DNA from: Candidatus Poribacteria bacterium
Lineage (GTDB): Bacteria > Poribacteria > WGA-4E > JAJDTR01
Assembly (NCBI GenBank): GCA_965222225.1
Contig: CBDCTK010000002.1
Location: 5,408,001 to 5,472,000 of the forward strand
DNA length: 64,000 nt
Direction: 5' to 3'
Positions 11,737 to 37,787 of this stretch are shown piece after piece. Positions within the stretch are counted from its first letter, which is position 1. Each line of letters starts with the position of its first letter. The notes beneath the pieces are model-generated. The model saw only the letters and a list, made by a program, of their open reading frames with translations, did no database searches and was not told the origin of the DNA. The translations under genes and the position numbers were made by a program.

Positions 11737-12065
11737 ATCAAACGACCGATCAAAGGAACGGATAGTGACTGCGATAGAGTTCCCATAGAGATTCCTGATA
11801 GGAAGGATCAAGTGACCGAATAGGATCAACCGAGTGGCTAGCGAGGACGATAGAGTTCCTCATGCGATAGGGATCCTAAGGCGATAGTAAATCCCATAGG
11901 GAGTGCGATAGAACTTCCATAGAAATTCGACCAGCCTTTGAAAGCGCCAGCGGTGCGAAAGGTGTATAGTAACGCGGATTCACTACACACCAAAGCCCCA
12001 GCGGAGATCAAGCGAATGGATAATGAGCAATCAAACGAGCGAACAGCGAGTGCGATAGAGATCGC
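11737..12065 (+). mobile_element. Cluster of ~6 nested copies of the 36-nt structured element
   Basis: ATCAA heads at 11737, 11749, 11807, 11825, 12007 and 12030, with stacked GCGATAG..TCC tails at 11863-11929. Confidence 0.8.
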
Positions 12066-12139
12066 ATTCAAACAATATCTCCGACCGACATTATCCTCAA
12101 AATTGATTATATAATCACCAACAATTCCCCAATTTCAGG

Positions 12140-12585
12140 TTGACGCATAACAGAAAATTTGGTATGATAAACCCCGATGGTGTCCTCAATTTCGTCTGGG
12201 AACAGCGCGATGGGGCCTTTGCGTCTACGAACAACATCCGAATTCATTACTTGGACTACGCCGGCAGCAATCCACCTATGGTGCTCATGCCGGGATTGAC
12301 GGATAATGCCCACTCGTTTGGCGGTCTCATTCACGCCGGCTTGAACAAGGGGCGCCGCGTCCTCACCCTTGACTTACGGGGGCGCGGGCTGAGCGACAAA
12401 ACCCAACACCGGCTACGGCATGGCTGACCATGCGGCGGACGTAGTGGGCTTATTGGATGCATTGGGACTCGACCAAGTAGTGCTCGGCGGGCACTACTTC
12501 GGAGGCATGTTGGCGCTGTACATGGCGGCAAAGTACCCGGAACGGTTCAGCAAACTGGTCATCATTGATTCCGCCATCTCCTGGC
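12140..12585 (+). pseudogene. Alpha/beta hydrolase fragment (frameshifted, 3'-truncated)
   Basis: PMVLMPGLT, LDLRGRGLSD; second frame LGGHYFGGMLA...YPERFSKLVIID. Confidence 0.8.
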
Positions 12586-12589
12586 CCTC

Positions 12590-13135
12590 CGACATGGGTA
12601 TAAATCTGAAACGGCTTGGTACATGATGCATCGGATTCGGGCTGAAGTGGCAACAGATAGCCATGTTTTGCTACAGGGGACTATTGAAGCGAATGAAACC
12701 TATGTTGATGGTATACCCCCGCAAGCACAACGAAAGGCAAAAGAACAACGACGAACCCCCAAAGCGGGGCGGGGTACGAAGAAAACGCTTGTAATAGGCG
12801 CGTTGGAATGGAGTGGAAAAGTCGAGCTCAGTTTGCGGACAATTTGACCGGAAAAGTCGTATTGAAATTCCTCAAGCGAAACGCGAACGCCGATAACTTG
12901 ATACTGATTACAGACGAATATAGGGCGCACAACTCTGTCAGTAGTATTATACCACACGAAAGCTATTAATCGCGACGACCGTTATGTTGATGTACGCCCC
13001 CATGCCAACACCATTGAAAGGTTCTGGCCAATTCTGAAACGGGCTTGGAATGGGAAACAGTATCATTACTTCGTTAGGGTGTGCTTTACATAACTTCAAT
13101 ACTGGAGTTCCTGTAGATAACCGTTCCGTTTTCTT
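12590..13135 (+). mobile_element. Degraded IS1595-family transposase fragment
   Basis: AWYMMHRIR, GTIEANETYVDG, GRGTKKT, LITDEY and HANTIERFW across frameshifts. Homologous to the intact copy at 45021. Confidence 0.8.
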
Positions 13136-13585
13136 TCGTTCCGAGAGACCAACATGTGAAATGTTATTTCTACTGTTGTCAAGTTGTCGCTCTGCTTCCT
13201 CAACAACGGCCATCGGTTCAAGTTCGTAGATAACTTTCACCTTTATTTGATTTTTTGCATAGAATACAGCAAAATAGACCTTATGATTTCTCCAAATCCT
13301 ATTCAAGGATTCCACGCGTTTGTCTGGCGGATGCTTAAACATTCTATCAAACTGTCCAGAACCACCTTCTTTGCAGGACAAATATTCATACAGAATAGTG
13401 GGGTCGTTGGGGGCGTGAGCATCAGCATCTCGTTTTGAGGTTATTAGGGTATGTCCGAGAATATCGGCAATGATCATTTCTTTAACTAGCCCTGGCTGGA
13501 GAAGGTTGTTGATATTTACAGTTCTCGCCAAATCAGTCGCTTTAGTAACAAGCTCAATAATTTTGCGATATATTGCCTTGCCCAT
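13086..13585 (-). pseudogene. Putative type II restriction endonuclease, frameshifted near the C-terminus
   Basis: Starts 2 nt after the MTase stop. Has a PD-(D/E)xK-like DADA...YEYLS segment and low GC. A frame switch at ~13140 restores the tail KENGTVIY. Confidence 0.55.
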
Positions 13586-13586
13586 A

Positions 13587-14385
13587 TCACATAAACACCT
13601 GTTGATTAGGAAGTTCGGAAAGTCTTTTTTCCGCACTCTGAACGAAGTTCGGTTCATAGTCGAAGGCGATAAAATTTCGCCCGTGTTTTTTACACGCGAC
13701 AGGACATGTACCAACCCCTGTAAATGGGTCTAAGACTAGGTCGCCCGGAGATGAACTTGCTAATACAATTCGTTCTAGTAACTTTTCAGGTTTCTGGATA
13801 GTGTGTAAGTGCTTCTCGGCTAATAAGTTCTTTTGACTTGTAGGTAAGTTGCTTAATATCTCCCCAGACGTTTCCTGGGTTCTTACCTTTACTATTAAAC
13901 TTGGTTTTTCCAAACTTGCCATTCAGCACAGAGGGCACGCGTTCACACCGAAGCCGCTGATTTAGCTCAACAAGCTGTGCCACCCTAATGGCATCTAGGT
14001 TATAACATCGCGGGCGAGTGCCCTTGATGAAGTAACAGATTAAATCATAGTTATTTGTATAGTTTATTCTGCCTTGAGCAAGGCGGCTTGGCTGATACCA
14101 TACAATCTTTGAACGAAGGTTCAAAAACTTCCGATAATCAATGAAATCAATACAGTCCGGTTTGCCAAACAAATACAAAGCTCCACCAGACTTTAATTTA
14201 GGGGAAAAGCGCTGTATCAAATCAAGGTTAAAATCCTGAATAGAAACAACCTTATCCCATGGTTTATCTGTTCTGGCATACGGACCATCGCATACAATCA
14301 GATCTATTGATTCATCCTCAATCTTGTCTAATAGTTCAAATGCATCACCGCAGTAAATCCTGTTAGGTTCAAGGCTATTTGTCAT
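13587..14385 (-). pseudogene. Beta-class N4/N6 DNA methyltransferase, frameshifted at ~13808
   Basis: SIDLIVCDGPY, GKNPGNVW; second frame TIQKPEKLLERIV...VLDPFTGVGT. Confidence 0.88.
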
Positions 14386-14571
14386 GGTTCTGTCCTCCAT
14401 GTGTAAACATACATTACTATTATATCATACTATACCCGCCACAGGACACGAAAAACAACCACTGTGGCAAAATGCCACGCAACCGAAAATTCCAGAACTA
14501 CGCAGTGCGTTTAATGGAGTATTCATTCACACAATATTAATGCCCGCTGAAGAGCTGTAGGAGAGACATTC

Positions 14572-15567
14572 ATGGATTTAAAACCGCTGAGAACCGGCTT
14601 TATTGGCGCAGGCGGCTTCGCGAGGCATACGCTCTACCCGGCGTTGCACTTCGCCCCGATTGACTTACAGGCGATTTGCGAGATTGACGAAGAAAGAGCG
14701 AAAAACGTACTGGGAAAATTCGGCACCGGGCGGTGGTATGCGGATTACCATCAGATGTGGGAAAATGAAGATATTGAGGCGATGATTATCTGTGCCGGCC
14801 CCGAGGCGCGCCAATCCCTCGTCTGCGAAGCCCTTGAAGCCGGGTATCACGTCTTTGTGCCTAAGCCGCCCGCAGAGACCCTCGCGGCAGCGACCGAGAT
14901 AGCCGAAGTCGCGAATCGCACAAACAAAGTCGTGAAGGTGAACTTTCAACGTCGATTTAGCCTCGGCGTTCGGCGCGCCATGGAGATTATGAGTGGAGAC
15001 AGTTTCGGCAAAGTCACACAACTTCTCGGCTCGTTCTGCTCGGGCAACTACCGTTCGCGTCTTGCGAAGACAAGCGAAACAGGGGAGTGCGGAGCGGGAC
15101 AGGTCTATCTGCTAGATTTCGCAATTCACTATTTCGATCTGATTCGTTACATCGGTGGAGAGGTGAAAGCGGTTTCCTCTTTCCACAACGAGATTGGAGG
15201 ACAAGGGGCTTTCGCGGTAACCTTGCAGTTCGAGAGTGGAGCGGTCGGAACGCTGCAACTCAACAGCCACCGCCTATGGGGGCGTAACTACGACCGTGTC
15301 GAAATCACCGGTCAGGGAGAATACATTATCCTTGACGGTTTGTGGTGCGTTGCCCACTACACCGAATCCCAAAACCATTTCACGGATAATTTCAGCGATC
15401 AACGCACTGGCGAATTGACCGGTGACGGATACAGCTTGACCGAATTCGTGAGCGCCATCCGAGAAGAGCGTGAGCCGATTGCAAGCATCCACGATTGCCT
15501 CGGGACAATGAGGCTTTATGAAGCCGTGCTGGCAAAACAGAAAGGTGTAGTTGAATTAAGCGATTAA
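14572..15567 (+). CDS. Gfo/Idh/MocA-family oxidoreductase
   Basis: GFIGAGGFA, HVFVPKPPA, NFQRRF, LLDFAIHYFD. Confidence 0.9.
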   Translation: MDLKPLRTGFIGAGGFARHTLYPALHFAPIDLQAICEIDEERAKNVLGKFGTGRWYADYHQMWENEDIEAMIICAGPEARQSLVCEALEAGYHVFVPKPPAETLAAATEIAEVANRTNKVVKVNFQRRFSLGVRRAMEIMSGDSFGKVTQLLGSFCSGNYRSRLAKTSETGECGAGQVYLLDFAIHYFDLIRYIGGEVKAVSSFHNEIGGQGAFAVTLQFESGAVGTLQLNSHRLWGRNYDRVEITGQGEYIILDGLWCVAHYTESQNHFTDNFSDQRTGELTGDGYSLTEFVSAIREEREPIASIHDCLGTMRLYEAVLAKQKGVVELSD

Positions 15568-15569
15568 GC

Positions 15570-15770
15570 GATTAAGCGAGCGAATAGATCAAGTGACCGG
15601 ATAGGGAACGCGATAGCAATCCCCTGAAGCGACTGAATAAGTTGTAGGGTGGGATCAAAGGAGTGAATAACGATCAAGCGAATGAATAATGAGTGCGATA
15701 GTGAATCCCGTACGATAGAGGTCCCCCTGCCCACCATCTCTTGGGGTATCCCAATGCGATAGAGTCTCCG
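15570..15770 (+). mobile_element. Cluster of ~5 copies of the 36-nt element, two inside REP GTAGGGTGGG...CTGCCCACC
   Basis: Heads at 15571, 15588, 15625, 15654 and 15673. REP arms at 15644-15653 and 15727-15735. Confidence 0.8.
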
Positions 15771-15898
15771 CTCATTCCTGCTCGGCTCGGATTGCCAAAT
15801 CCAAGCCTTGGCCGATTGCGTCATCAGTTCGTAGGTTGGGTTGAACGGAAACCCAACACCTCATCTGAATCACGGAACTAACAAGGAACATTTGACAA

Positions 15899-16285
15899 AT
15901 GGATGAAGACAAACGCTTTGAAAAGGGCATGAAAATCCGAAGGGAAGTCTTGGGAGATGAACATGTTGATCGAGCCCTAACTAATGCCAACGCCTTTAAT
16001 GACGCCTTTCAAGATCTGACAACCCGTTACGCATGGGGAGAAGTCTGGTCACGACCCCAGTTGTCTAAACACTCTCGAAGCCTCATTACCCTTGCAATGC
16101 TGATTGCTCTCAATAGAAAACCCGAGTTTCAACTGCATGTCAAAGCCGCGCTAAACAATGGCGTTTCCATTGAAGAGATTAAAGAAGTTGTGCTCCAATC
16201 GGCGGTATACTGCGGTTTGCCCGCCGCTCATTCCGCATTTCATGATGCCCAAGAAGTCTTTGAAGAGCTGAATTTGGAGATTTAA
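15899..16285 (+). CDS. pcaC: 4-carboxymuconolactone decarboxylase family protein
   Basis: GMKIRREVLGDEHVDRA, YAWGEVWSRP, AVYCGLPAA. Confidence 0.88.
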   Translation: MDEDKRFEKGMKIRREVLGDEHVDRALTNANAFNDAFQDLTTRYAWGEVWSRPQLSKHSRSLITLAMLIALNRKPEFQLHVKAALNNGVSIEEIKEVVLQSAVYCGLPAAHSAFHDAQEVFEELNLEI

Positions 16286-16589
16286 CGCGCACAATAGCCT
16301 TCGTAGGGTTGTCTACCTTGCCCGTGATGCCCCCAAACCGTGACGAGTGAAATGTTTCTAAGTTAATCCATCAATACGCCTCTTACAAGGCACATCCGAT
16401 GAAACGGTATAGTGGTAAATTGTCGTTAAACTCTACATAAGCGCCAAAGGATATGGACGGAACTCCATATCCGCTTGGGTGCTGCTGGATAGGCGCTGCC
16501 GGAAGCTCCGACTAGTGTGGGCAGACAGAAGGGAATCGGTCATGTTAGCTGAATTCAAGTTCGGAGATTTGCAAGGCAGCAACGAAGCC

Positions 16590-16930: not shown

Positions 16931-16965
16931 ATCAAAGCAACAAACACTGAAAGAAGATTGCGCTC

Positions 16966-17802
16966 ATGAACGAACACGACGAAAAGGCGTACTATCCGGA
17001 CATCCGACAGACCGTTTGGCTACTGATATGCCTCTTTTTTCTCTTGGTTCTCATAAGCGTTCCTTTCTTTCTGGTCGATTTTTGGATTGATTACCACCTG
17101 CTTGAACATCCCGCTTGCTTCGGTGCAATCAGTGCCGTAGCGTTTGGACTAGCGCTGAAATGGGGCATCGGCAAAACAGGTCGCTCGTTTTCGGAGGTCT
17201 GTCCCGCCGCGTCTGTTGAGCGTTCATTATATCCGTTAATGGTGTTGCTTATCTTGGGACTGGAGATTCTTCTCTCCGAGGCAGACAATGTTCTGCGTAC
17301 ACTGCTGCCTGCACCGCAATGGCTGATGGATCAACTATTGGATTTGGTACGGGCAGAACAGAGTCTTTGGGGGTCGATACTTGTACTTGTAATCGTCGCC
17401 CCCCTCGCGGAAGAGTTTCTGTTCCGTGGCCTCATTTTGAATGGATTTCTGCGCAAATATTCAGTCACGAAGTCCATTCTTGTATCCGCTCTGCTCTTTG
17501 CCCTGTACCACTTGAATCCGTGGCAATTCCTAGGCGCCTTCGTGGGTGGGATAATCCTCGCGTGGTGGAGGATTCGTACAGGCTCGATTGTGCCCTGTAT
17601 CTTCGGACATGCGTTAAAGAATGGGATACCAATGATTGTTATGGGGGTAAAGATTGAAATCAGCGGGTATTCATCGGATCCCACGGGACCAGTTCAGTTG
17701 CAACCGTGGTGGTTCGATGTGACTGGCGTCATACTGTTTGTCGCCGCTCTCTTTGCCCTCCAGCAACGGTTTGCCGAACTCGCACCGCCTAACGAGGTTT
17801 GA
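16966..17802 (+). CDS. CPBP/CAAX-family intramembrane metalloprotease
   Basis: APLAEEFLFRG, LLFALYH, GHALKN; multiple TM helices. Confidence 0.9.
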   Translation: MNEHDEKAYYPDIRQTVWLLICLFFLLVLISVPFFLVDFWIDYHLLEHPACFGAISAVAFGLALKWGIGKTGRSFSEVCPAASVERSLYPLMVLLILGLEILLSEADNVLRTLLPAPQWLMDQLLDLVRAEQSLWGSILVLVIVAPLAEEFLFRGLILNGFLRKYSVTKSILVSALLFALYHLNPWQFLGAFVGGIILAWWRIRTGSIVPCIFGHALKNGIPMIVMGVKIEISGYSSDPTGPVQLQPWWFDVTGVILFVAALFALQQRFAELAPPNEV

Positions 17803-17805
17803 TTC

Positions 17806-18957
17806 ATGGCACACGCCTATACGCCGGGGCTAAAAGTCTCAAGAGGTATGACGATACACAAGCAGCGCAGGCTACCGCTTGAAGGTGAAGTGCTTGTGGG
17901 TGTCGGTGACAAAGTTTGTGCCGACGAGGTCGTCGCAAAGGCGGATCTCCCTGGCAATGTGCAGCTGGTAAATATTGCGAATCTGCTCAGCGTTCCCGCC
18001 GGTGATGTGGAGGAATACACAACCAAAAAGATAGGCGAAAGCGTCGAAAAAGATGAAATCCTCGCGGCAACCAAAGGAATTTTCGGGCTTTTCAAATCAC
18101 AAGCCCGTTCCCCGATTTCTGGAATGGTCGAAAACATTTCCGATGTCACTGGACATGTGATTCTTCGCGAGCCTCCAATCCCTGTCGAGGTGAGAGCTTA
18201 TGTAGACGGATCTGTCACTGAAGTCGCTGGTAATGAAGGGATTACCGTCGAGGCCTACGGTACCTACATTCAGGGAATCTTCGGTATCGGAGGAGAAACC
18301 CTTGGAATACTGGAGGTCGTCGTCAGCTCCCCTGATGCGCCTCTTACCCCTGACCTAATTCAGCCTCAACACCGGGACAAAATTCTTGTCGGTGGGTCGA
18401 TTGTTTCGCACGATGCGATTCAAGCGGCGATTCGAAGTGGTGTTAGAGGATTGATTGTGGGCGGTATTGATGACAAAGATCTCCGGGAACTCTTGCGTTA
18501 TGAACTCGGTGTCGCCATCACTGGCTCCGAAGACATCGGTATCACCCTCGTTGTTACGGAAGGCTTTGGGAAGATCCGAATGGCGGATCGCACTTTCAAT
18601 CTACTTAAGGAACGACAAGGCCTCAAAACATCAATCAATGGTACAACCCAAATTCGCGCCGGAGTGGTACGTCCGGAAATCGTCGTTCCTTTCGAATCAA
18701 GCGGGCATCTGATAGAGGATGCTGTCGTAGCCGGAATACTTGAGGTCGGCACGCCGGTTCGTGTCATTCGTGAACCCTATTTCGGACAACTTGGTCGTGT
18801 TACCGCGTTGCCTGTCGAACGCCAACAGCTGGAAACCGGAGCCAAGGTGCGCATCTTGGAAGCTGAGTTGGACGACGGCGCACAAATAACGCTTCCGCGG
18901 GCAAATGTCGAAATCATTGAGGAGACACAATCTGCCTTCTCCGACACGAGCGGATAA
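17806..18957 (+). CDS. Conserved hypothetical protein (barrel-sandwich-like N-terminus, KOW-like C-terminus)
   Basis: 383-aa ORF with MAHAYTPGL, QGIFGIGGE, LVVTEGFG, VRVIREPYFG and PRANVEII. Function not recognised. Confidence 0.75.
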   Translation: MAHAYTPGLKVSRGMTIHKQRRLPLEGEVLVGVGDKVCADEVVAKADLPGNVQLVNIANLLSVPAGDVEEYTTKKIGESVEKDEILAATKGIFGLFKSQARSPISGMVENISDVTGHVILREPPIPVEVRAYVDGSVTEVAGNEGITVEAYGTYIQGIFGIGGETLGILEVVVSSPDAPLTPDLIQPQHRDKILVGGSIVSHDAIQAAIRSGVRGLIVGGIDDKDLRELLRYELGVAITGSEDIGITLVVTEGFGKIRMADRTFNLLKERQGLKTSINGTTQIRAGVVRPEIVVPFESSGHLIEDAVVAGILEVGTPVRVIREPYFGQLGRVTALPVERQQLETGAKVRILEAELDDGAQITLPRANVEIIEETQSAFSDTSG

Positions 18958-19007
18958 TCAATACGCTAGGACTTACGCGGAAACAGGAGGTCGCGACGGT
19001 AGGCGGA

Positions 19008-19149
19008 GATCAACTGAGCGATCAGGCGACTGGATAAGGAGCGCGATAGAGTTCCTATAGCGAAGGATCAAGGTAACGGATAGTGACCGATCAACTGAAT
19101 GGACAGTGAAGGCGATAGAAAGTCTTGATAGCAATCCCATAGAGATCCG
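19008..19149 (+). mobile_element. Four-copy, three-level nest of the 36-nt element
   Basis: Removing the inner copies reconstitutes outer copies with intact pairing (see findings). Confidence 0.85.
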
Positions 19150-19416
19150 TTAATCCGCGATTCAGACAATTACTAAAATTCACAATCCCCATACCTTATT
19201 CTCTTAGCGAATAAACCACTAATACACTAATTGATAAATTTCCACCCCATGAGAAGATTAAGGGTGGAGCTAATCGATAATTCAAGCAAAATTGGCGTCA
19301 TAAACCTGATTGCGTTTCACTGCAATTATTCCATAACCACATGGGGCACCGCTAGTACCGAACCGGTCCTACACTCCTATCGCCCGATTCTTTGGAGAGA
19401 TTTGATTTTGAACACT

Positions 19417-20685
19417 ATGTATCGATTGAGGACAAATCCTTTTATGAAAGCAACAAACAGAAAACTCCGACTGGTTTTAGTCTGTTTCTCGGCAGTTTTC
19501 CTTTCATCTTCGCTGTTGGAAACCATCAACTCTGGCATAATCCTCTGCTGGGCGTCAAGTACAGATATGAACTCTACGTCTGAAGTTCAAGAGCCGTTAA
19601 AAGGAAACGCAGAGGTCGCGGACATCAATACCGGATGTTTCGGCCCAATTCATAATGAGGATGTTGACCTCGTGGAGAGTACCGAACTGATTCGACAGCA
19701 TAATCCGTTGCTATGCCAAGCCAATTTGACAAAGCAGCGAGGATTTGAAGAAATCGATCTGCTCCAAGATCGCGGGGAAGCGCCCCCAAAATTGCTAAGC
19801 AAGACCAGTCCGAAAAAATCACAGTCGCCAGAGCTGTCCGTCGATTCGCCCCTTGAGGCGGGAATTGATAGATATATCAAGAGTAACCGATACCGGCGTA
19901 CGTTGGCATCGACAGACCAAACGAGTTTCGTTGTTTACGACATTTCGAAGGGAAAAAAGGTTGTCTCGATTAACGAAGACCAACCCATGATGGCGGCGTC
20001 CCTTATCAAAAACTTTGTGATGTTAGTCTATTTTCACGAGGTCCGACAGGGACGGTTGCACCACACAAACCAGAATCGCCTACATCTGAAAAACATGATC
20101 CAGCGGAGCTATAATTCCTCGACAAACTACTTTATCAGATTGCTTGGCGGCCCCCACCGCGTGAATCAACTCCTCAGATGGAATTATCCCTTATTCGAGC
20201 ATACGCGTATCGTTGAAAATATTCCAAGCGGCGGGCGCACCTATCGAAACATGACCTCTGCGCACGATATGAACCGTTTCTATTATCAATTATGGCTGGG
20301 GCATCTGCCCCATTCTCCGAAAATGAAACATTATCTGGGTTTGCCCAAAGGGGATCGCCTTTACGATAAAACCTGCATTCCGCGGGGTGTTCACGTCTAC
20401 AATAAAACCGGCACGGTTTATGGAATGGTTGGAGATAGTGGGATTTTGGTCATCACCGACCCGAAAGGCAAACAGCGTGCATACATTCTAATCGCAATCA
20501 TTGAAGACAGGACCAAAACCAATCTTCGGAATCGCTCCCAATCCTTCGGATCCTGGGTGAGTCGCCGCACAGAAATCCTGCGTAGTGTCTCGGAAGGTGT
20601 CTACGAATATATCTACGAGCGGCATTATGGTGGAGTATACCAGTGCCGGCAGCATCGCGGTAGACACCTAATCGCTAGGAAGTAG
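19417..20685 (+). CDS. Class-A beta-lactamase-like serine hydrolase / PBP-like protein (start uncertain)
   Basis: Motifs SxxK (ASLIK), SxN (SYN) and KTG; N-terminal hydrophobic segment. Confidence 0.85.
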   Translation: MYRLRTNPFMKATNRKLRLVLVCFSAVFLSSSLLETINSGIILCWASSTDMNSTSEVQEPLKGNAEVADINTGCFGPIHNEDVDLVESTELIRQHNPLLCQANLTKQRGFEEIDLLQDRGEAPPKLLSKTSPKKSQSPELSVDSPLEAGIDRYIKSNRYRRTLASTDQTSFVVYDISKGKKVVSINEDQPMMAASLIKNFVMLVYFHEVRQGRLHHTNQNRLHLKNMIQRSYNSSTNYFIRLLGGPHRVNQLLRWNYPLFEHTRIVENIPSGGRTYRNMTSAHDMNRFYYQLWLGHLPHSPKMKHYLGLPKGDRLYDKTCIPRGVHVYNKTGTVYGMVGDSGILVITDPKGKQRAYILIAIIEDRTKTNLRNRSQSFGSWVSRRTEILRSVSEGVYEYIYERHYGGVYQCRQHRGRHLIARK

Positions 20686-20693
20686 CTCTTCTT

Positions 20694-20940
20694 GTAGGGT
20701 GGGATCAAGCGAGTGAATAGCGATCAAGGGAACGAACAGTGATCGATCAACTGAATGGACAGTGAAGGCGATAGAAATTCCCTCAAGCGAACGATCAACT
20801 GAGATCAAACGAGCGAATAGCGATTGACCGAGTGGACAACGAGGGACAACTGAGTGAATAACGAAGGCGATAGCAATCCCGTGCGATAGAGCTCCATCAG
20901 CGATTATTAAGTCGTCGTTTTTCCTTCTTATTGCCCACCA
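20694..20940 (+). mobile_element. Cluster of ~8 copies of the 36-nt element inside REP GTAGGGTGGG...TGCCCACC
   Basis: Heads at 20704, 20723, 20746, 20783, 20794, 20804, 20823 and 20846. REP right arm at ~20932-20939. Confidence 0.8.
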
Positions 20941-21038
20941 TCCCCAAACACGTAGTCAACTGATTATACAATATATTGTACGATATGTGACAGTATTACA
21001 CTATATATTGATAATTATTTTATTTCCAAATAAGCTGT

Positions 21039-22172
21039 ATGAACGATTCAATCATCAATCGAATTGAATGGACGCGCCTGACCGGAACGAGACCGCGAAA
21101 CGCCGGCTGCAACTCACGTCTGGGAGGGCATGGAATACACGTTAGACCGGGCATTGCTCGCGTTACTGCCGAAAATGGAGCAACTGGCTTTGGTTGGTCG
21201 TCGTTGTCCAAAGAATATGCGGAGTCGCTGATCGGCTTTAAGCTTTGTGAGATCTTTAATCTACAATGCGGGGTTGACGCACGGTTTCGCGCGCTTGAAT
21301 ATCCGCTCTGGGACCTGGCGGGACAGCTTGCCGGCAAACCCGTGTACGCCCTCTTGGGAGGCCAACCCGACAACGAAGGAATCTTTCGTGTGCCTTGCTA
21401 CGATACGTCATTGTACATTGACGACCTTCACCTTGAAGACGACAATGAAGCGGCGGCACTAATTGCGTCGGAAGCCTTGGAAGGAGTAGCGCGGGGGCAC
21501 ACGGCATTCAAGATTAAGGTCGGACGTGGTGCCATGCACATGCCCCTTGAGAAAGGGATGGCGAGAGATATCCGCGTCATATACGCTGTTCGCGAAGCTG
21601 TGGGCACAGACGCGACCATCCTGATAGATGCCAACAACGGATATAATTTGAGTTTGACGAAACGCGTATTAGGTGAGACCGCGGATGCTAACGTGTACTG
21701 GATGGAGGAAGCCTTCCATGAAGATCCGAAATTCTACGCGAGCCTGCGCGAATGGCTAGACGCGGAAGGGTTGGAGACACGCATCGCTGATGGAGAGGGT
21801 GATGCATCGCCTAGCTTGGTTAATTGGGCGCGAGAGGGCTTGATTGACATCATTCAATACGACATTTTCAATCCCGGCTTCACCCACTGGCTGCAACTTG
21901 GTCCTCAACTTGACGAATGGGAGATTGGCACCGCGCCCCACCATTACGGTGGTCATTACGGCAACTACGCTGCAGCTCACTTGGCAGCCAAGGTCCGGCG
22001 CTTTGAATTCGTCGAATGGGATGAGGCGTTAACCCCCGGTTTGGATGCCTCTGACTACGGAGTCTCTGACGGACACGTCAATGTTCCCGGCACCCCCGGA
22101 TTCGGTCTTAGGTTAGATGAAGACGTTTTTACCAAATCTGTTGCCACCGACGGCTTTGTAATTAGCCGATAA
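21039..22172 (+). CDS. Mandelate racemase/muconate lactonizing (enolase superfamily) enzyme
   Basis: LWDLAGQLAGKPVYALLGG, FKIKVG, IDAN, WMEEAF, ADGE, PGFG. Confidence 0.9.
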   Translation: MNDSIINRIEWTRLTGTRPRNAGCNSRLGGHGIHVRPGIARVTAENGATGFGWSSLSKEYAESLIGFKLCEIFNLQCGVDARFRALEYPLWDLAGQLAGKPVYALLGGQPDNEGIFRVPCYDTSLYIDDLHLEDDNEAAALIASEALEGVARGHTAFKIKVGRGAMHMPLEKGMARDIRVIYAVREAVGTDATILIDANNGYNLSLTKRVLGETADANVYWMEEAFHEDPKFYASLREWLDAEGLETRIADGEGDASPSLVNWAREGLIDIIQYDIFNPGFTHWLQLGPQLDEWEIGTAPHHYGGHYGNYAAAHLAAKVRRFEFVEWDEALTPGLDASDYGVSDGHVNVPGTPGFGLRLDEDVFTKSVATDGFVISR

Positions 22173-22191
22173 ATCCGGATGTTTCTCCTTA

Positions 22192-22371
22192 GAACTTGTT
22201 TGAAGATTCATTTTTGGTAGCGCCATTCGCCCTGAAACCGACTGTTTGTCAGCACTCTTGTAGGGTGCGCACTGCGCACTAGCCTTTGGAAGCCGGCGTC
22301 AGATCAAACGAGATCAAGTGAGCGAACAGCGAGCGATCAAGCGACTGAACAAGGAGTGCGATAGAAATCCC
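22192..22371 (+). mobile_element. MITE left end, GTAG REP (22260) and three copies of the 36-nt element (22302-22371)
   Basis: TTA|GAACTTGTTTGAA resembles the MITE end at 37500. Heads at 22303, 22313 and 22336. Confidence 0.7.
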
Positions 22372-22473
22372 TCTCGATCATCAAATCAAGATGAAATCTC
22401 CTAAGGGGTTGGGCTTTCATCGCACTATTGATGCTTCCCCTGTATTCCTAACCACTAACCACTGTCTTACCTG

Positions 22474-22899
22474 TTATTCCAAGCCGAGATGATTCATGTA
22501 TCCTAGCATCTTCGTTTCGACCTGCTGAGCAATCGGTTCCAACGTTTCAGAATCGACCGTGGTCTGCTGAATCCTCTCATCAATATTCGTCTGTAGACAG
22601 TAGTTCAGATTCTCTCGCATATCGTGCATCGCCTGCCCAATGTGATCCCTGACAGATCCGGGAAGGTAATTCCACTGCCGCGCTTTGGTTTGCCTTAAGT
22701 TAATATGGCAATGTCCTTTTCCCTTTTTATCGTTTTCTCCCCCGAAACAGTCGAGTCGAAAAACCTCCTGATCGTAGGCATAGATGGATATTGCGGGGCC
22801 ATAACCAGCCCGATCATCCCGCCAGTAAACTTCTAGACGGACGTTGTCCTGTATCTGATATTCAACCAGATCGTGTCTGCCCTGTTGTTCCGGAGCCAT
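22474..22899 (-). CDS. Hypothetical protein (141 aa)
   Basis: GGAG RBS before MAPEQ; contains FRLDCFG...GHCH; follows the aldolase gene. Confidence 0.7.
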   Translation of the reverse strand: MAPEQQGRHDLVEYQIQDNVRLEVYWRDDRAGYGPAISIYAYDQEVFRLDCFGGENDKKGKGHCHINLRQTKARQWNYLPGSVRDHIGQAMHDMRENLNYCLQTNIDERIQQTTVDSETLEPIAQQVETKMLGYMNHLGLE

Positions 22900-24422: not shown

Positions 24423-24690
24423 TAGGGTGGAATCAAGCGAACGGATAGTGAGTGCGATAGGAATCCCCTGTCCACCATTTCTTGTAGGGTGTGCATTGCG
24501 ATCAAGTGACCGAATAGGGAACGCGATAGAGATCTTACCAGCCTCTAAAAGCCCCAGAGGGGATCAAACGAACGGATAGTGAGTGTGATAGCGATTCCAC
24601 AGGTATATAGCAGGCAACTACAAAAACATGAAAACACCCCTTTCTCAAATTACTGGAAATAGATTTGCCGCCTATTATTCAAACAGGTTC
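24423..24690 (+). mobile_element. REP/MITE mosaic with three 36-nt elements (24431, 24500, 24562); MITE right end TTCAAACAGGTTC abuts the RBS of the next gene
   Basis: Aligns with the MITE copies at 29401 and 37500. Confidence 0.75.
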
Positions 24691-25771: not shown

Positions 25772-25778
25772 AGATCGA

Positions 25779-26095: not shown

Positions 26096-27985
26096 TCATT
26101 CCACGACCATCAGCCTCCGCGTGTGTCTTTCCCCTGATGCCTCCAACACATAAAAATAAACGCCACTCGACACTGGTTCATTGTTCAGATTACGTCCGTT
26201 CCAATACACCGCATCGGATTTCGCCGAATAATTCCCAACCGGAAGTTCCCCCTTTGCAATACTATGAATCGAACTTCCTCGCAAATCGTAAATGCGAAGC
26301 GTCACCCGACTCGGTTGTATCAGTCTGAATGGGATCCAAGTCTCCGCGTTGAACGGGTTTGGATAGTTTTGCAATAAGACGCCGCGTTTTAAGCCGCCTA
26401 CTGTAACGGGCAACGAGTTGGGAGGGAGTTTAACACCGCTAGGTTCAGGCATACCGGTTTCCCCAAACTGCGCCAATAATGCCTCAAAAGCGGTGCGGCT
26501 ACGGATAATGCCGTATCCAACCGCGTTATCTGGTGCGCGCGATTGAGAGGCAGTCGATCGAACCGCGTTGGCGATATCCCGAGGTGTAGCGAGAGGGAAC
26601 GCCTGCATCAATAGCGCAACCACTCCCGTGCCTAGGGGCGCGGATGCCGAGGTTCCACGGTGGGTATGGGCGAAACGGTTTCGCGTCTGCGGATTGATGC
26701 CTGTTACGCCGAGCCCCATAGCGACGAGGTCAGGCTTTATCCGTCCGTCAAATGTTGGTCCACGTGAACTGAATCGCAAATTCCTACCATGACGGTCAAC
26801 CGATCCGATAGCAAGCACATCGAACCCGTCTGCCGGTACACTAATGCGTCCGCCCAAACCCAAATCTCCTAAGGGCTGATCCCCCAAATTTCCTGTTGCA
26901 ACAATTACGGATATTCCCTTCTCTACCGCGAGATTAGCGGCAATCGTTAGTTTTGAGGTTTTCCCGTCAAGGTCTTCAAAGCGGTACCATTTCGAGTAAC
27001 CGAGCGAGCTGCTAATGATTTCAGCGCCCATCTGTTCTGCCCATTCCAGCCCCTCTATCCACCAGTCTTCTTCGATTAAGTGTTCAAATTCCTGCCCGTT
27101 TTGGGAGACCTTTTCTGTCTTGGCAAGTAGATAGCTGGCACGGTATGCAACCCCCATCAAAGTTCCCGGTGCGTTTGCCGCAAGTATGCCAAGAACAACC
27201 GAACCGTGGTCATCTTCCCCGGGATCGTCTTGCCCAATTTCATCAGCCGGATTGTTGTCATTGTTGACAAAATCGTACTGAGCAAGAACGTCTACGGGCT
27301 GAAGTGCCGTGTGGTCTAAGCTGAATCCCGTGTCTAGCAGACCAATTACGATTCCGTCTCCGGAGAATCCCGACTCGTGCAGAAAGTTGGCTTGAATCTG
27401 TTCAATCTGCGTTCGCGAGTTTCCGTAGTTCAAGGGTGCTAATCCGGGTGGGGCTTCTTGAGACGAGGAATACCATAATGAGTCCGAGCGTTGAGATGTG
27501 CTTCTATAGATCTCAATCGGATCAATCGCGAGGACAAAGGGCAGACAGGCTATCTTGGAAATCTCAGTGGGCGTTGTCTCAATCGAAATTGCGTTGAGCC
27601 ATCGACTCTTGGCGCGCAATCTTCCGCCTATTTTAAGCACAGCATCAGTGTACGGAGTTGAGACAGGGAGATCGGTAATGTCGGGAAAGGGAAGGCGTGT
27701 CCGGCGAAGACGACGGCGTTTGGAGCGCGTAGACATTTGGGTTTCGTACGCTTCCAGTGCCGTTTGCAACTGATTTTTCGTCGCAATTCCTTTGTCTTTG
27801 AAAAGTACCCACACCTTCAGTTTTTCGTGGATATCAGCACCAAGAAGCCGACTAGAGATTTTGGCGAGCCCTACAGGTGAACCATCGGCGGGATGGGCAG
27901 GTAAATCGAAACAAAGCGTTGCTAAGAAGCAGAGCAGCAACGCGATAAATGCTTTCACGGGAGCAACATATTGTGTCAGCCACAT
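26096..27985 (-). CDS. Secreted S8 subtilisin-like peptidase with C-terminal FlgD-Ig/sorting-like domain
   Basis: Catalytic triad LLDTG / DHGS / GTSAS; tail LLQNYPNPFNAETWIPF...YWNGRN...SGVYFY. Confidence 0.92.
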   Translation of the reverse strand: MWLTQYVAPVKAFIALLLCFLATLCFDLPAHPADGSPVGLAKISSRLLGADIHEKLKVWVLFKDKGIATKNQLQTALEAYETQMSTRSKRRRLRRTRLPFPDITDLPVSTPYTDAVLKIGGRLRAKSRWLNAISIETTPTEISKIACLPFVLAIDPIEIYRSTSQRSDSLWYSSSQEAPPGLAPLNYGNSRTQIEQIQANFLHESGFSGDGIVIGLLDTGFSLDHTALQPVDVLAQYDFVNNDNNPADEIGQDDPGEDDHGSVVLGILAANAPGTLMGVAYRASYLLAKTEKVSQNGQEFEHLIEEDWWIEGLEWAEQMGAEIISSSLGYSKWYRFEDLDGKTSKLTIAANLAVEKGISVIVATGNLGDQPLGDLGLGGRISVPADGFDVLAIGSVDRHGRNLRFSSRGPTFDGRIKPDLVAMGLGVTGINPQTRNRFAHTHRGTSASAPLGTGVVALLMQAFPLATPRDIANAVRSTASQSRAPDNAVGYGIIRSRTAFEALLAQFGETGMPEPSGVKLPPNSLPVTVGGLKRGVLLQNYPNPFNAETWIPFRLIQPSRVTLRIYDLRGSSIHSIAKGELPVGNYSAKSDAVYWNGRNLNNEPVSSGVYFYVLEASGERHTRRLMVVE

Positions 27986-28065: not shown

Positions 28066-28172
28066 GATCAATCAACCGGATAGGGAACGCGATAGAAATC
28101 TCGGCGCGATGAATCTGATGAATCTCTAGTGCGATAGGGGGGTTGTAGCAACTGCGATAGAAATTCTCATAG
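28066..28172 (+). mobile_element. One 36-nt element plus orphan tails
   Basis: GATCAATCAACCGGATAGGGAACGCGATAGAAATCTC, then GTGCGATAG and CTGCGATAGAAATTCTC. Confidence 0.7.
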
Positions 28173-29400: not shown

Positions 29401-29647
29401 ACCGTGTTTGAAAAGTACAGTTTGTAGGGTGCGCACTGCGCACCAGCTTCTAAAAGCCCCAGATGGGCGGAAGGTGTATAGAAACACCAAAACCCCGTGC
29501 ACCTCTAAGCCCCAGCGTGGGATCAAGGAAGCGAATAGCGACTGCGATAGAGATCCTACAGGTATGTAGCAGCCAACAATGAAAACATGAAAAAACTTTC
29601 TACAAATGACCAAAAATGGCTTTGCCACCGATTATTCAATCAGGCTC
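29401..29647 (+). mobile_element. MITE (TTA-flanked) carrying a GTAG REP, two GCCCC-AG-GGGC hairpin units and one 36-nt element (29521-29557)
   Basis: Nearly identical to 37500-37787 outside the insertions. TTA at 29398 and 29648. Confidence 0.85.
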
Positions 29648-34189: not shown

Positions 34190-34247
34190 AAGACGAGCAA
34201 AAGCGGAATAACATGGTTGTTCCGCCTCCAATGCCTCAAGACATTTG

Positions 34248-35819
34248 CTACGCGAGAAGTGGGAGATCGACTACGGTGATTTTGGGCCGCTTCAACACAG
34301 AGACCAGCGTAGGTCTCAACTCGGTAACCGTCTCGACTCGGAGTCCGTGCAGCCCGAATGATTCTGCGAGTTTTATGATATCCGGTTGAGGGCTCCGATG
34401 TTGGTGTTCAATAACTAATACGGAGACATTTATCCTCTGCTGTGCCGCTGTAGTGAGTTCGGAGGCCATCAGCGAGAATTCATCACGGTCCGTTACCGCG
34501 ACAATTTGGCGGTTCCGATGCGCAATCTTCGCGCCGATTGCGGCTGGAAGCGCATATCCCGCAATCCCCAAATCACACGAATGCAGGAGAGTTCGCGGCG
34601 AAGAAACATCAAAGTGATCTAGCAGAAGTTCGATTAGATGTACTCCGCTCACCGCCAGAATTGCCTCTTTGTCCAATACGGATCGCAGGATTTCTACAAT
34701 TTCGTGGTTTGTACCTTGGTTGGGCCTAAGGCCACCAAATGCGCTTGAGCCTGCCGTGGGGATTTTCCACTCGTTATGCGTCTCTAGTTCCTCGTCTCCA
34801 ATGATTTGCCTCAAAGCAGTCTTCGCATCTGCCACCATACCAATCCGCACTGGATAGTTTCTGCCAATTACCTTTTCTTCAATATCAATCTGAATGAGAT
34901 CTCTCGGCAAACGTAACTGTCCATCCTTTGTTGTGCGCCGTGACAAACTGCACCCAATCGCCATTACCGCATTGGATTGGAAAACGACAGAAGACGTTGC
35001 ATCATTGACCGCGTTCCCAATCATCCCTGCTGCGAGTGGATGCGTCGACGGAATTATTCCTTTGCTCATTGGTGTGACGTATACCGGGGCGTTTAGGAAT
35101 TCAGCGAGTTGGATGAGTTCGACTCTCGCACCTGCCGACACAACTCCGCCACCTGCGACAATCGCGGGATACTTTGCATGAGTCATCATTTCTGCGACGA
35201 GCGTGGTAAGGTGCGAGGTAAGCATGTTGAAGTATGCCGCTAGTGGAGCACCCTGAGAAACATTTCCTCTGGAAGGGAGAAACTCGGTTGATTCACTCTC
35301 TAATACATCAGACGGGATTTCTAAATGAACGGGCCCCGGGCTGCCAGATTCTATTAGCTCAAATGCTTGGCCAATCGTTTGAAAAATCTCTTCACGATTT
35401 TCGACTCGCCAATTCCATTTTGTTACGGCGTCGAATAGTTTCTGCAAGTCCACATGATTGAAGGGGGCGCGATGACGGTCTAACGGTATCTCGGATGCTA
35501 AATCATCGACAAACATCTGCTCCGTAATTAGAAGCAACGGTATGTTATCCGCATGAGCAGATGCAATCCCGGGTACTGCGCTGACCGCCGCATCTCCACC
35601 AGAAAGATGGCAAATCCCTACATTACCGGTCGCACGAGCGTATCCATCGGCCATAAGAACGGCAGCCTGAGCTGATTGTGCGGAGAAATATTGAACCTTG
35701 TCGGATTTCTCTACGGCATCACGAATCTTTGAAGCACCTTCTCCCGGCAGTCCGAAGACAGTATTAACCCCGTGCAATTCAAGCAACTCAACAATTAAAT
35801 CATCACCGGATCTTACCAA
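34248..35819 (-). CDS. Acetolactate-synthase-like ThDP-enzyme homolog lacking catalytic/cofactor motifs
   Basis: VFGLPG, MADGYARATG, PGPVHLEIP and LPAAIGAK are present, but RHE reads QSA and GDG reads TDR. Confidence 0.85.
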   Translation of the reverse strand: MVRSGDDLIVELLELHGVNTVFGLPGEGASKIRDAVEKSDKVQYFSAQSAQAAVLMADGYARATGNVGICHLSGGDAAVSAVPGIASAHADNIPLLLITEQMFVDDLASEIPLDRHRAPFNHVDLQKLFDAVTKWNWRVENREEIFQTIGQAFELIESGSPGPVHLEIPSDVLESESTEFLPSRGNVSQGAPLAAYFNMLTSHLTTLVAEMMTHAKYPAIVAGGGVVSAGARVELIQLAEFLNAPVYVTPMSKGIIPSTHPLAAGMIGNAVNDATSSVVFQSNAVMAIGCSLSRRTTKDGQLRLPRDLIQIDIEEKVIGRNYPVRIGMVADAKTALRQIIGDEELETHNEWKIPTAGSSAFGGLRPNQGTNHEIVEILRSVLDKEAILAVSGVHLIELLLDHFDVSSPRTLLHSCDLGIAGYALPAAIGAKIAHRNRQIVAVTDRDEFSLMASELTTAAQQRINVSVLVIEHQHRSPQPDIIKLAESFGLHGLRVETVTELRPTLVSVLKRPKITVVDLPLLA

Positions 35820-36031
35820 TTCGTACCTCCTAATGTGCTGCGTGTGATGAATGAGACCTTAACGTCGTCACTGCGTCCAATAGTATGAGTTGTATCGTCA
35901 ACCGTGTGGGGTTTGTCATGAACTCAATAAAAGCGTTAGGGGTAAGACAACAACTGAAAAACTACTACTATCGCCTCATTTATCGAGTTGGAAACTGCTT
36001 AGTCTAAGACCTTATATTGCCTGGAGGAAAT

Positions 36032-37327
36032 GTGATTACACTGAATCCGTTAGCTAAAGAATTAAATGAGAAAATCCAATCCATGAATCCCGTTGTTTTC
36101 AACCTGTTGTCTTCACTTGGCCAGCGCTGTTATGTTCCCAAAGGTATTCTAAGCCAAAGTACGGAAGCGAATTTAAAAGCGTATCGTTCCAATGCGACCC
36201 GCGCAGTAGCACTTGAAAATGATATCGCCATGTATCTCCCGAGCTCTCGAAGGTTTGTTCCAGAGATTGCGCCCAATCTGGTCTACGGCTACGCACCGGC
36301 GCTGGGCCAAATAGAGCTGCGGAGACAATGGAGAACCAAGATAATTGTTGAAAATCCGACACTTGCCGGAAAGTCGTTCAGCACACCCATTGTTACGAGT
36401 GGAATGACACACGGTTTCAGTTTAATTGGTGACCTTTTTGTAAATGGGGGAGATGTGTTGGTCTTGCCCGATAAAATTTGGGGTAACTATCGATTAGTTT
36501 TTCAGACGAAATATGCGGCAGAGATTGTGACTTATCCTTTCTTCAATTCACTAGGAAGGTTGAATACGGAAGGGTTTTTCGAGTCCCTCATGCAAGCGGG
36601 GAAAGGACGCCAAAAGTTAATCGTAATTCTGAATTTTCCGCATAATCCCACAGGGTATGCCATTAACTTGGTGGAAGCAAAGCAAATTACCCAGGCAATC
36701 AGACAGGTCGCCGAACAGGGTGTCCGGCTTTTGGTCTTAGTTGATGACGCCTACTTTGGGTTGTGGTATGATGATAATGTCTTGCGGGAATCCCTCTTCG
36801 GATGGTTGACTAACCTCCATCCCAACATTATACCGGTCAAGATTGATGGGGCAACAAAAGAGGAGTATGCATGGGGATTGCGTGTCGGCTTTCTTACCTT
36901 CGGCCTGGACGAGGGCGAGATTAAACCGTTGGAAGAAAAGATTACCGCTCTGATTCGTGTGAGCACGTCAGGCGCCTCCCAGTTGTCACAGACGATGGTG
37001 TATCAGACGATGGACACACCCGGGTATAGAGCAGAAAAACAGCGAAAATATGAAACTCTGAAGGCTCGCGCTCTTAGAGTGAGAGAGGTTGTATACGGTC
37101 CAAGTTATAAAGGATTGTGGGAGGTGTACCCGTTTCACGCCGGATATTTTATGTGCATACGACTAAAACAAGGAAATGCTGAGGCGGTACGACAGCGTCT
37201 TCTTGACGAATACGGTATTGGCGTGATTTCGCTTGGGGATAAGGATCTCCGGATTGCCTATTCCTGTGTGGAGGAATCAGACATTCAATCACTATTTGAC
37301 ACTATCGCGAAAGCAACAAGAGCTTAG
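36032..37327 (+). CDS. PLP-dependent aminotransferase class I/II
   Basis: NFPHNPTG, DDAY, DGATKE..WGLRVG; GGAGG before the GTG start. Confidence 0.9.
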   Translation: MITLNPLAKELNEKIQSMNPVVFNLLSSLGQRCYVPKGILSQSTEANLKAYRSNATRAVALENDIAMYLPSSRRFVPEIAPNLVYGYAPALGQIELRRQWRTKIIVENPTLAGKSFSTPIVTSGMTHGFSLIGDLFVNGGDVLVLPDKIWGNYRLVFQTKYAAEIVTYPFFNSLGRLNTEGFFESLMQAGKGRQKLIVILNFPHNPTGYAINLVEAKQITQAIRQVAEQGVRLLVLVDDAYFGLWYDDNVLRESLFGWLTNLHPNIIPVKIDGATKEEYAWGLRVGFLTFGLDEGEIKPLEEKITALIRVSTSGASQLSQTMVYQTMDTPGYRAEKQRKYETLKARALRVREVVYGPSYKGLWEVYPFHAGYFMCIRLKQGNAEAVRQRLLDEYGIGVISLGDKDLRIAYSCVEESDIQSLFDTIAKATRA

Positions 37328-37499
37328 GTAGCACCGCGCTGCACCGCGTCGATTATTTGCCCGTCTTCTCTTGCTCCAACGATTCTCTTCGCTCCCACAA
37401 ATCGCTGGGTTCATAGCGTTCCACAGGTTGCAAACCTCTTGAACTATAGTGGAGACATGTTAGAGGCGAATCCCCAGTTATCCGCCCTTCCATCCTTTA

Positions 37500-37787
37500 G
37501 AGCCTGTTTGAAAAGTACAGTTTGTAGGGTGCGCACTGCGCACCAGCCTCTAAAAGCCCCAGAGTGGGATCAAGGGAGCGAATAGCGACTGCGATAGAAA
37601 TCCATGAAGGTGTAAGGTGTATAGAAACACCAAAACCCCGTGCACCTAAGCCACAGCGGGGATCAAGCGAGTGAATAACGAGTGCGATAGCAATCCCATA
37701 GGTATATAGCAGCCAACAATGAAAACATGAAAAAACTTTCTACAAATGACCAAAAATGGCTTTGCCACCGATTATTCAAACAGGTTC
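37500..37787 (+). mobile_element. MITE (TIR GAGCCTGTTTGAA / TTCAAACAGGTTC, TTA duplication) with a REP and two 36-nt elements (37568, 37661)
   Basis: TIR matches 12/13. TTA at 37497 and 37788. Confidence 0.88.

Follow-up and report, generated by a model that had tools for sequence, protein, structure and literature searches.

Repetitive extragenic palindromic (REP) elements are short extragenic hairpin repeats that occur in hundreds of copies, with a RAYT (TnpA_REP) transposase as their partner (PMC3116915, PMC3733652 and PMC6006769, each in part). A repeat that is like them in this respect, called here the hairpin element, is present in a Candidatus Poribacteria bacterium. Read on its folding strand, it has the form GATCAA-NN-GA-NN-GRAYA-NN-GA-NN-GCGATAG(-ARATCCC) and measures about 36 nt. 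It was studied in a window, that is, the whole stretch of 64,000 nucleotides at positions 5,408,001-5,472,000 of the 5.64-Mb contig CBDCTK010000002.1, and in the genome to which the window belongs (G000; two contigs, 5.70 Mb, 50% G+C). Other genomes of the same genus, g1, are referred to as congeners and carry the labels G001-G009. Dispersed repeats as tiny as this abound in bacteria, and the way in which they move is a general question.

By its behaviour the hairpin element is, in short, more a new relative of bacterial REPs than an element of a wholly new kind. The evidence leans towards a REP-like mobile element that is very small and non-autonomous, acts in the form of single-stranded DNA and is mobilised in trans, probably by a Y1/HUH enzyme. 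Such an enzyme would recognise the fold of the element together with its invariant flanks, and the four stem pairs would therefore be free to change as long as they change together. New copies are inserted without target duplication, mostly after a host GA when they nest in their own family; elsewhere, many lie in or beside hairpins of their own family or of other REPs, and serial insertion yields the nested clusters. Insertion or survival would depend on the replication strand, with the folding strand accumulating on the C-rich strand. The likeliest mobiliser would be a Y1/HUH transposase supplied in trans and belonging to one of the kinds encoded in the genome, RAYT or IS200-like.

Within REP families, sub-families are distinguished by stem residues that differ yet remain complementary, and G-T pairs are frequent; GA residues are unpaired in one family, and other palindromes enclose some of the REPs (PMC3733652, in part). 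Structure-preserving variation within one genome is therefore, on the parts of that paper used here, a known property of REPs, and the preliminary description of this DNA went too far in taking covariation within a genome as a unique sign. The hairpin element resembles REPs in its complementary stem variants and G-T pairs, and also in its presumed mobiliser, an HUH enzyme acting on single-stranded DNA, and in the presence of several RAYT genes in the genome. An imperfect extragenic palindrome of 20-40 nt in hundreds of copies, the usual description of a REP, is found here in 998 copies. The element differs from REPs, which bear a GTAG or CGTC tag in the parts of PMC3733652 used here, in that its ends are GATCAA and GCGATAG-ARATCCC and it has no tag of its own. 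Further differences are an invariant tandem G.A mismatch that divides the stem into two 2-bp helices, the nesting of the element inside itself, and, unlike in REPtrons, the absence of any RAYT bracketed by it in a conserved way. REPINs are inverted doublets of REPs (PMC3116915, in part), whereas neighbouring copies of the hairpin element within 100 nt of each other are direct in 153 cases and opposite in 24.

The 'peel and paste' elements of the IS200/IS605 family, such as IS608 and ISDra2, offer a second comparison, drawn from parts of PMC6006769. Their enzymes act on the lagging-strand template. The hairpin element is like them in its hairpin-defined ends, in the lack of target duplication, in insertion 3' of a short target and in an apparent coupling to the replication fork, and an IS200-type TnpA (P0001) is encoded in the genome. 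It is unlike them in that it has one hairpin instead of two subterminal hairpins, is about 20 times smaller, holds no tnpA in any copy and would place its folding strand on the leading-strand template rather than the lagging-strand template. A MITE derived from IS200/IS605 was considered and rejected, because the element has a single hairpin and P0001 is flanked by REP-A hairpins of different sequence. In a second reading, possible yet doubtful, the element would be no satellite of a RAYT/REP system and would represent a distinct minimal transposable class: a single hairpin of 35 nt that is read purely by shape, inserts 3' of GA and is moved by an enzyme still to be found, with the strand bias reflecting a new coupling to the fork. 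The shape would consist of two 2-bp helices around the tandem G.A step, and the GA targets would include the loop and the G.A step of other copies.

The small dispersed repeats (SDR) of heterocystous cyanobacteria, reportedly described by Elhai et al. in 2008, are said to be mobile repeats of less than 40 nt, with sizes of 21-27 nt, that nest within each other and within further repeats, have hairpin potential and have no known enzyme. They are reputedly the closest behavioural precedent, from another phylum and with apparently unrelated sequence. For the phylum itself, Weinberg et al. are reported to have found in 2017, by covariation in intergenic regions, a candidate RNA motif named Poribacteria-1. 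We presume a substantial though less than even chance that this motif is the hairpin element; if so, the novelty of the discovery is gone and the findings on mobility stay new. The name Poribacteria-1 was not found in a literature search, the word Poribacteria does not occur in the main text of PMC5737381, and nothing related was found in the literature on Poribacteria and extragenic palindromic repeats. The comparison with Rfam that had been proposed was carried out, and no Rfam 15 family reached its gathering score in the 64-kb window. A permissive scan (E up to 10) of 600 nt that hold 3 copies returned noise only. In a further 136 kb of copy-rich sequence, for a total of about 200 kb and more than 100 copies, the sole match was a tRNA-Sec gene (RF01852, 76 bits, G000:C2:1593669-1593758, + strand), from which it follows that the organism probably uses selenocysteine.

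Fold and covariation of the hairpin element

Copies were counted, in window and genome alike, by a pattern search that tolerates at most 2 mismatches. The window contains 17 matches, all on the + strand and between 11748 and 37690, and none of 100 shuffles yields any. The covariance model R1 recovers the identical 17 copies with 39-61 bits, again all on the + strand. Together with partial copies they form nine intergenic clusters, as first reported; the earlier estimate of about 30 full or partial copies was roughly right, with 17 full copies and about a dozen fragments, and the seven examples of paired slots quoted with it read as stated. The genome-wide total of 998 copies comprises 550 on the + strand, 445 on the - strand and 3 on the small contig.

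The unit, approximately 35-36 nt in length, is made up of TCAA, a 17-nt hairpin, GCGATAG and ARATCC(C). In the hairpin, a tandem G.A/A.G mismatch separates two 2-bp stems, the second of which carries a GRAYA loop. In a position profile of the 998 copies, GATCAA, the GA at two places and GCGATAG are invariant and the loop reads G-R-A-Y-A; the tail, A-R-A-T-C/T-C-C, is less constant. The variable positions are four pairs, an outer and an inner one in each of slots 1/4 and 2/3, and their pairing far exceeds what is expected from column composition. In slot 1/4 the outer pair is paired in 947 of 998 copies (522 expected) and the inner pair in 934 (523 expected); the corresponding numbers for slot 2/3 are 959 (495 expected) and 964 (792 expected). 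The top four mutual-information values among all pairs of columns belong to exactly these four stem pairs, which bears out the slot assignment made at the outset. When the analysis is confined to 140 distinct copies, 96.7% of cells pair as opposed to 76.6% in shuffles, and double-change cells number 203 as opposed to 59; not one of 500 shuffles reaches either observed value. Control partners slid along the alignment pair in merely 20-46% of cells.

G-T and T-G combinations are frequent across the four pairs (236, 134, 31 and 28 cases among the 998 copies), whereas the mirror mismatches A-C and C-A are rare (7, 20, 11 and 17 cases). Therefore the strand as written is the folding strand, which in the window is the + strand, as had been proposed. 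On both arms, next to each GA, A is avoided on the 5' side and T on the 3' side, a pattern that we take to resemble the context rule for sheared tandem G.A pairs. The hairpin element is thus a structure-defined element, and the roughly 1000 natural variants in each genome define which positions must pair and which stay constant.

Several other identities were tried for the repeat. A kink-turn RNA was rejected, since the G.A/A.G step is symmetric between two 2-bp helices and there is no 3-nt bulge, and a CRISPR array was rejected because the units differ in their stems and abut without spacers. HIP1 enrichment, and with it a cyanobacterial origin, was likewise rejected, with 117 occurrences of GCGATCGC against about 86 expected. 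Nothing suggests catalysis, and the early suggestion of a catalytic nucleic acid has been dropped.

Insertion, nesting and turnover

For 329 of the 998 copies a paralogous 'empty' site was found, defined as a place elsewhere in the same genome where the two 12-mers that flank the copy are contiguous. The net gain in length is 33-36 nt in 215 of these 329 comparisons. Copies that interrupt one another were identified by a parse in which 'GATCAA NN GA' is the opening token and 'NN GCGATAG' the closing token. By this parse, 763 copies are contiguous, 702 with a fully paired outer slot, and 123 are split, with a spacing peak at 55-57 nt that corresponds to 21 plus 34-36. The outer halves of split copies are complementary across the insert: 63 are fully paired, and the shuffle mean is 45.0 (sd 4.2), with 0 of 2000 shuffles reaching 63. 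A stricter pattern for split copies leaves just 17 cases, in which 13 fully paired copies versus 10.9 expected are indistinguishable from shuffles.

Single nesting was seen in 52 cases, with the inner copy beginning at host offset 12 in 18 cases, offset 19 in 14, offset 18 in 9, offset 17 in 6 and offset 10 in 5. Offsets 12 and 19, which account for 32 of the 52, are what would be expected if TCAA...ATCC(C) had been inserted precisely behind a GA of the host, namely the loop G12A13 for offset 12 and the mismatch G19A20 for offset 19. No target duplication was seen at the junctions of these 52 cases. The 18 composites of offset 12 are nearly identical variants of host and insert at different loci, so that a copy with a passenger in its loop apparently still propagates. 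Copies thus arise by insertion, and repeated insertion builds the nested clusters. Alternative units were also tried. A fragment from GATC to GATC was rejected because its junctions do not fit, and a 25-nt core cut at GA^T on both sides is backed by just 5 GCGATCAA junctions. A head-to-tail array with a 38-nt period lies at G000:C2:1578258-1578570, with GTAG + GATCAA..GCGATAG + TCTT as its unit; the stems differ between units, which indicates that the array is not a simple tandem duplication.

Of the 998 copies, 291 have a fragment of their own family upstream, 49 a tail of it and 83 a REP-A type hairpin (..CCCCAGnG..); a GTAG tag lies within 17 nt upstream of 255, where it belongs to a host REP in the cases read, and the remaining 320 have other contexts. 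On a crude gene map of longest open reading frames made for this analysis, 134 of the 998 copies are inside an open reading frame and 24 overlap a gene end.

All nine congeners keep three syntenic genes (window 17800-22500), with nucleotide identities of 79-89%. Of the two intergenic regions that separate these genes, one measures 84-691 nt and holds 0-2 copies, the other 94-1020 nt and 0-4 copies; the stems of these copies differ, and their orientation is always the same. An orthologous site downstream of a Y1 gene is empty in G002 (aaagccccagaggggcgacaggtgaa) and filled in G005, G001 and G000, where a 38-nt unit lies inside the aaagccccagaggggcgacaggtgaa hairpin in three species. Copies turn over between species and are not fixed, in agreement with the preliminary description, which took them to be mobile and not static.

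The plain pattern finds 560-1250 copies each in the nine other genomes of the genus, 3 copies in one sister genus and about 200 in each of 4 genomes of g4, a genus of another family; it finds none in 26 other genomes of the order. The search of related genomes with a covariance model, also among the steps proposed early on, gave matches in 17 of 151 sampled genomes of the phylum: 8 of 8 in g1 in addition to the window's genome, 1 of 1 in g2, 4 of 4 in g4, 1 of 1 in g12 and 2 of 20 in g6. The model has no match in 100 genomes of family f2. The distribution of the hairpin element in the phylum is patchy.

Strand polarity and Y1/HUH enzymes

The 998 copies fall into 670 clusters, of which 455 are singletons, and runs of copies on the same strand are long. 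Between co-directional genes, as called on the crude gene map, intergenic copies are sense to their flanking genes in 315 cases and antisense in 269. The motif's strand anticorrelates with GC skew (r = -0.34, p = 7e-28, a p-value that, like the others for orientation, overstates the case since clusters and regions are not independent) and hardly with gene-strand bias (r = 0.06). Once the skew has been corrected for the orientation of genes, the C-rich strand carries 379 clusters (about 72%) and the G-rich strand 151. Where genes lie on the C-rich strand, clusters are sense in 148 cases versus 58; where genes lie on the G-rich strand, clusters are antisense in 110 cases versus 50. Cluster polarity in convergent and divergent regions agrees with the preference for the C-rich strand. 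The skew flips sign repeatedly along the chromosome, and the orientation of the motif flips with it. Sign changes of the skew of G000:C2, both raw and gene-corrected, occur at about 0.8, 2.55, 3.1, 4.4, 4.6, 4.9, 5.1 and 5.5 Mb, not just twice, which suggests past large rearrangements or assembly joins at repeats.

Since orientation follows GC skew and not gene direction, a single-stranded DNA stage is favoured over a role in RNA. A structured RNA motif that acts in transcripts, be it by protein binding, by stability or as Poribacteria-1, with its spread through the genome secondary, is accordingly quite improbable. Tolerance of G-U would fit an RNA fold, every copy in the window is compatible with a sense position in a + strand transcript, and a weak positive dependence on gene strand persists after skew (logistic coefficient +0.44). 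Contigs from an RNA library do contain the repeats, from a strandless run that cannot exclude DNA. The near balance of sense and antisense copies between co-directional genes, the excess of antisense clusters where genes lie on the G-rich strand and the lack of an Rfam 15 match in about 200 kb speak against such a motif, which would also leave nesting and turnover unexplained.

The dnaA gene is at 2.61 Mb and the global minimum of cumulative skew is at 2.54 Mb, so that the rule by which the leading strand is G-rich appears to hold. From the C-rich preference we infer that the leading-strand template carries the folding strand. The genome's GTAG-REPs have this polarity too (171 to 49, 62 to 18 and 13 to 3), with a weaker bias in one further group (59 to 42). 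In chromosomal integrons the recombinogenic strand of attC sites is on the leading-strand template, which limits excision, and a comparable survivorship effect could be the source of the strand bias seen here.

The polarity common to GTAG-REPs would also suit a DNA element that serves the host, as a site for the nucleoid, a topoisomerase or a replication protein, with its strand kept by selection and its copies carried passively by other REP systems. In other bacteria, certain REPs are said to be bound by gyrase, IHF or Pol I, and the presence of the hairpin element in all 10 genomes of the genus that were searched suggests long retention. The polarity of merely about 72% argues the other way, given that selected polar motifs such as KOPS show a stronger one. 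In addition, individual copies are not conserved between species, copies interrupt other repeats, one truncates a RAYT gene, and the distribution across the phylum is patchy, down to 2 of 20 genomes in g6. A host-serving element is therefore considered rather unlikely.

Five Y1_Tnp loci are present in the genome, one intact and of the IS200 type, the others of the RAYT type and in several cases broken. The intact protein, P0001, has 157 aa, the HUH motif HIH and the tyrosine motif RYIKNQ, with Q four residues after the catalytic Y. By score it is an IS200-type transposase (65.8 bits, cut-off 55) and falls under the cut-off of the REP-type model (30.6 bits, cut-off 80); among solved structures, proteins of the ISDra2 type are its best relatives. 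In G000 it is bracketed by inverted copies of the hairpin element. Homologues occur in all nine congeners and in genera g4, g6 and g3, and at every locus read they are flanked by another hairpin, AAAGCCCCAGnGGGGCGACAGGTG or GCGCTCCAGnGGAGCGCAATGT, including in genomes without the hairpin element. Copies of the hairpin element near these homologues lie inside the flanking hairpins of the AAAGCCCCAGnGGGGCGACAGGTG/GCGCTCCAGnGGAGCGCAATGT type.

A second type of Y1 protein (..RYCYENP..) has several paralogues per genome, near which copies of the hairpin element are irregular. The third type, with the motifs YDYS..MPNHxHGI..YIxNNP, is truncated in G000 exactly where a copy of the hairpin element lies. 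What is left of this gene (G000:C2:3560268-3560543, - strand) is 92 codons long, and the copy stands in place of its N-terminal half. Frames of this type are open over 186-202 aa in five congeners (G001, G003, G005, G006 and G008); that of G009 is 189 aa, and its match carries one TAA stop. As read, the loci of the congeners have flanks with GTAGGGGACGCAGATCTGCGTCCCCTAC or GGGAATAAC-type hairpins, and no copy of the hairpin element lies within 700 nt of these frames in the other g1 genomes. Two more RAYT-type genes of G000 look damaged: one of those at G000:C2:3088937-3089269 and G000:C2:3727502-3728014 has an in-frame TAG, and the other is apparently split over two frames.

Inverted copies of the hairpin element thus flank two of the five Y1 loci of G000. 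They are explained by insertion of the element into the REPs of those genes, given that the orthologues are flanked by other hairpins. The genome thus holds several REP/RAYT pairs, and the hairpin element invades their REPs. Mobilisation by an HUH enzyme of the Y1/RAYT-like kind, as first proposed, stands insofar as Y1 genes exist elsewhere in the genome, outside the window; none of them could be assigned as the mobiliser of the hairpin element, because each has another cognate REP.

A number of observations weigh against a REP-like element moved by such an enzyme. No enzyme was tied to the hairpin element among the five Y1 loci and their orthologues, in a search that did not include reverse transcriptases. 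Homologues of P0001 do not track the motif, since g6 (7 of 7 genomes) and g3 (5 of 10) have them although few or no copies of the motif occur there, and the flanks of the ..RYCYENP.. gene in G000, as read, hold GTAGGAGCGATCTC-type REPs that bracket it as an inverted pair. In thermodynamic terms the hairpin is weak, with nearest-neighbour z-scores of -1.3 to +1.1 that are not significant in six copies from the window. The proposed fold is the minimum-free-energy structure in 3 of these 6 copies as RNA, a point that suits an RNA motif, and in 0 of 6 as DNA. The fold implied by the preliminary description is therefore upheld by strong covariation and weak as a hairpin taken alone, which suggests that it is kept by something that reads it and not by its own stability. 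The junctions are not always clean, with 1-2 host nucleotides before the GA missing in 20 of the 52 nested cases. Many comparisons with 'empty' sites show a few replaced bases, and 89 hairpins are joined directly to the next GATCAA, which a simple rule does not explain, with 5 joined to GCGATCAA. Among the 455 singletons, complementary flanks of at least 5 bp are found in 10.5%, and in two controls in 4.6-4.7%; hairpin loops are therefore a preferred target and not an obligatory one, and the idea of an obligatory loop target was not upheld. Finally, the polarity is opposite to that of IS608-type elements, whose active strand is on the lagging-strand template, and the REP-like reading has to invoke survivorship or a different mechanism.

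Some of the same observations would suit copying without a dedicated Y1 enzyme, either by template switching or repair synthesis at stalled hairpins or by reverse transcription of a small RNA and its insertion. The imprecise junctions with their few replaced bases, a G or GA common to the 5' junction that possibly reflects microhomology, the many copies in or beside hairpin-forming repeats and the lack of a cognate transposase among the Y1 loci are all compatible with it. Such a route is nonetheless unlikely, given that the unit is sharply bounded with constant ends, as seen in the gains of 33-36 nt, which would be unexpected for template switching. For the REP-like element, nested copies record insertion sites at single-base resolution and the strand polarity is clear, such that variants, junctions and polarity together make possible a biochemical test of Y1/HUH enzymes on a folded strand with GA.

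The hairpin element also has practical consequences: assemblies of uncultured sponge symbionts from short reads break at it, and it has disrupted a gene in at least one case. The repeats are break points in contigs from public reads, namely 1 RNA run and 3 runs that have no recorded type and were treated as DNA; the joints at repeats have short sides and are probably from paralogous loci.

Copies in the window

All features below are on the + strand. A full copy with slots AG/CT and AC/GT and the tail AGTTCCC lies at 11748-11784, and stacked tail fragments continue to about 11925. At 11806-11860, an 18-nt 5' fragment of a host copy (11806-11823) is followed by a full copy with 2 mismatches (11824-11860). 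At 12006-12065, a hairpin unit without GCGATAG (12006-12028) stands head-to-tail with a full copy (12029-12065), and a REP-A type hairpin, aaagccccagcgg, lies upstream. A full copy with slots GT/AC and CC/GG is found at 15587-15623, preceded by decayed 5' fragments (15562-15586).

The feature at 15644-15735, read directly from the sequence, resembles a Russian doll. Its outermost layer consists of the arms of a GTAG-REP, GTAGGGTGG at 15644-15652 and CTGCCCACC at 15727-15735. The middle layer is a split host copy, with its 5' part at 15653-15671 and its 3' part at 15710-15726, and innermost is a full copy with tail at 15672-15709. In the cluster at 19008-19150, a 12-nt 5' fragment precedes a full copy at 19020-19056, and a hairpin unit (19066-19088) abuts a full copy (19089-19125) that is followed by GATAG/ATAG tail modules.

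A filled GTAG-REP occupies 20694-20939, with its arms at 20694-20702 and 20933-20939. Its interior holds stacked 5' fragments (20703 and 20722), a full copy (20745-20781), fragments (20793-20843), another full copy (20844-20880) and the 3' part of the host, GTGCGATAGAGCTCC. In the corresponding intergenic region of congener G004 there is a REP of the same type (gtagggtgggcattgcccacc) without an insert. Two 5' fragments (22302 and 22312) and a full copy (22335-22371) make up the cluster at 22302-22371.

Three full copies at 24431-24598 each lie within another repeat: 24431-24467 within a (G)TAGGGTGG...CTGTCCACC hairpin, 24500-24536 within the 3' arm of GTAGGGTGTGCATTGC|..|ACCAGCC, and 24562-24598 within a REP-A, AAAGCCCCAGAGGG|..|ACAGGTATATAG. 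A full copy with 1 mismatch at 28066-28102 has decayed GCGATAG modules downstream (28131-28172), and the full copy at 29521-29557 is within a REP-A hairpin (aagccccagcgtgg|..|acaggtatgtag). The last feature, at 37524-37697, is a composite of an intact GTAG-REP (37524-37544) followed by two REP-A hairpins with one full copy each (37568-37604 and 37661-37697).

A larger composite recurs in the window, at 37524-37720 and 24480-24620 and also at 11925-12005, and consists of a GTAG-REP (GTAGGGTGCGCACTGCGCACC) followed by AGCCTyTrAAAGCCCCAGnGGGGCGACAGGTrTATAG. In several genera, the IS200-type Y1 gene has this second part as its flanking hairpin. Among the genes of the window, a subtilase gene at 26096-27985 (- strand) has weak, below-cut-off matches to C-terminal sorting domains of type IX secretion.

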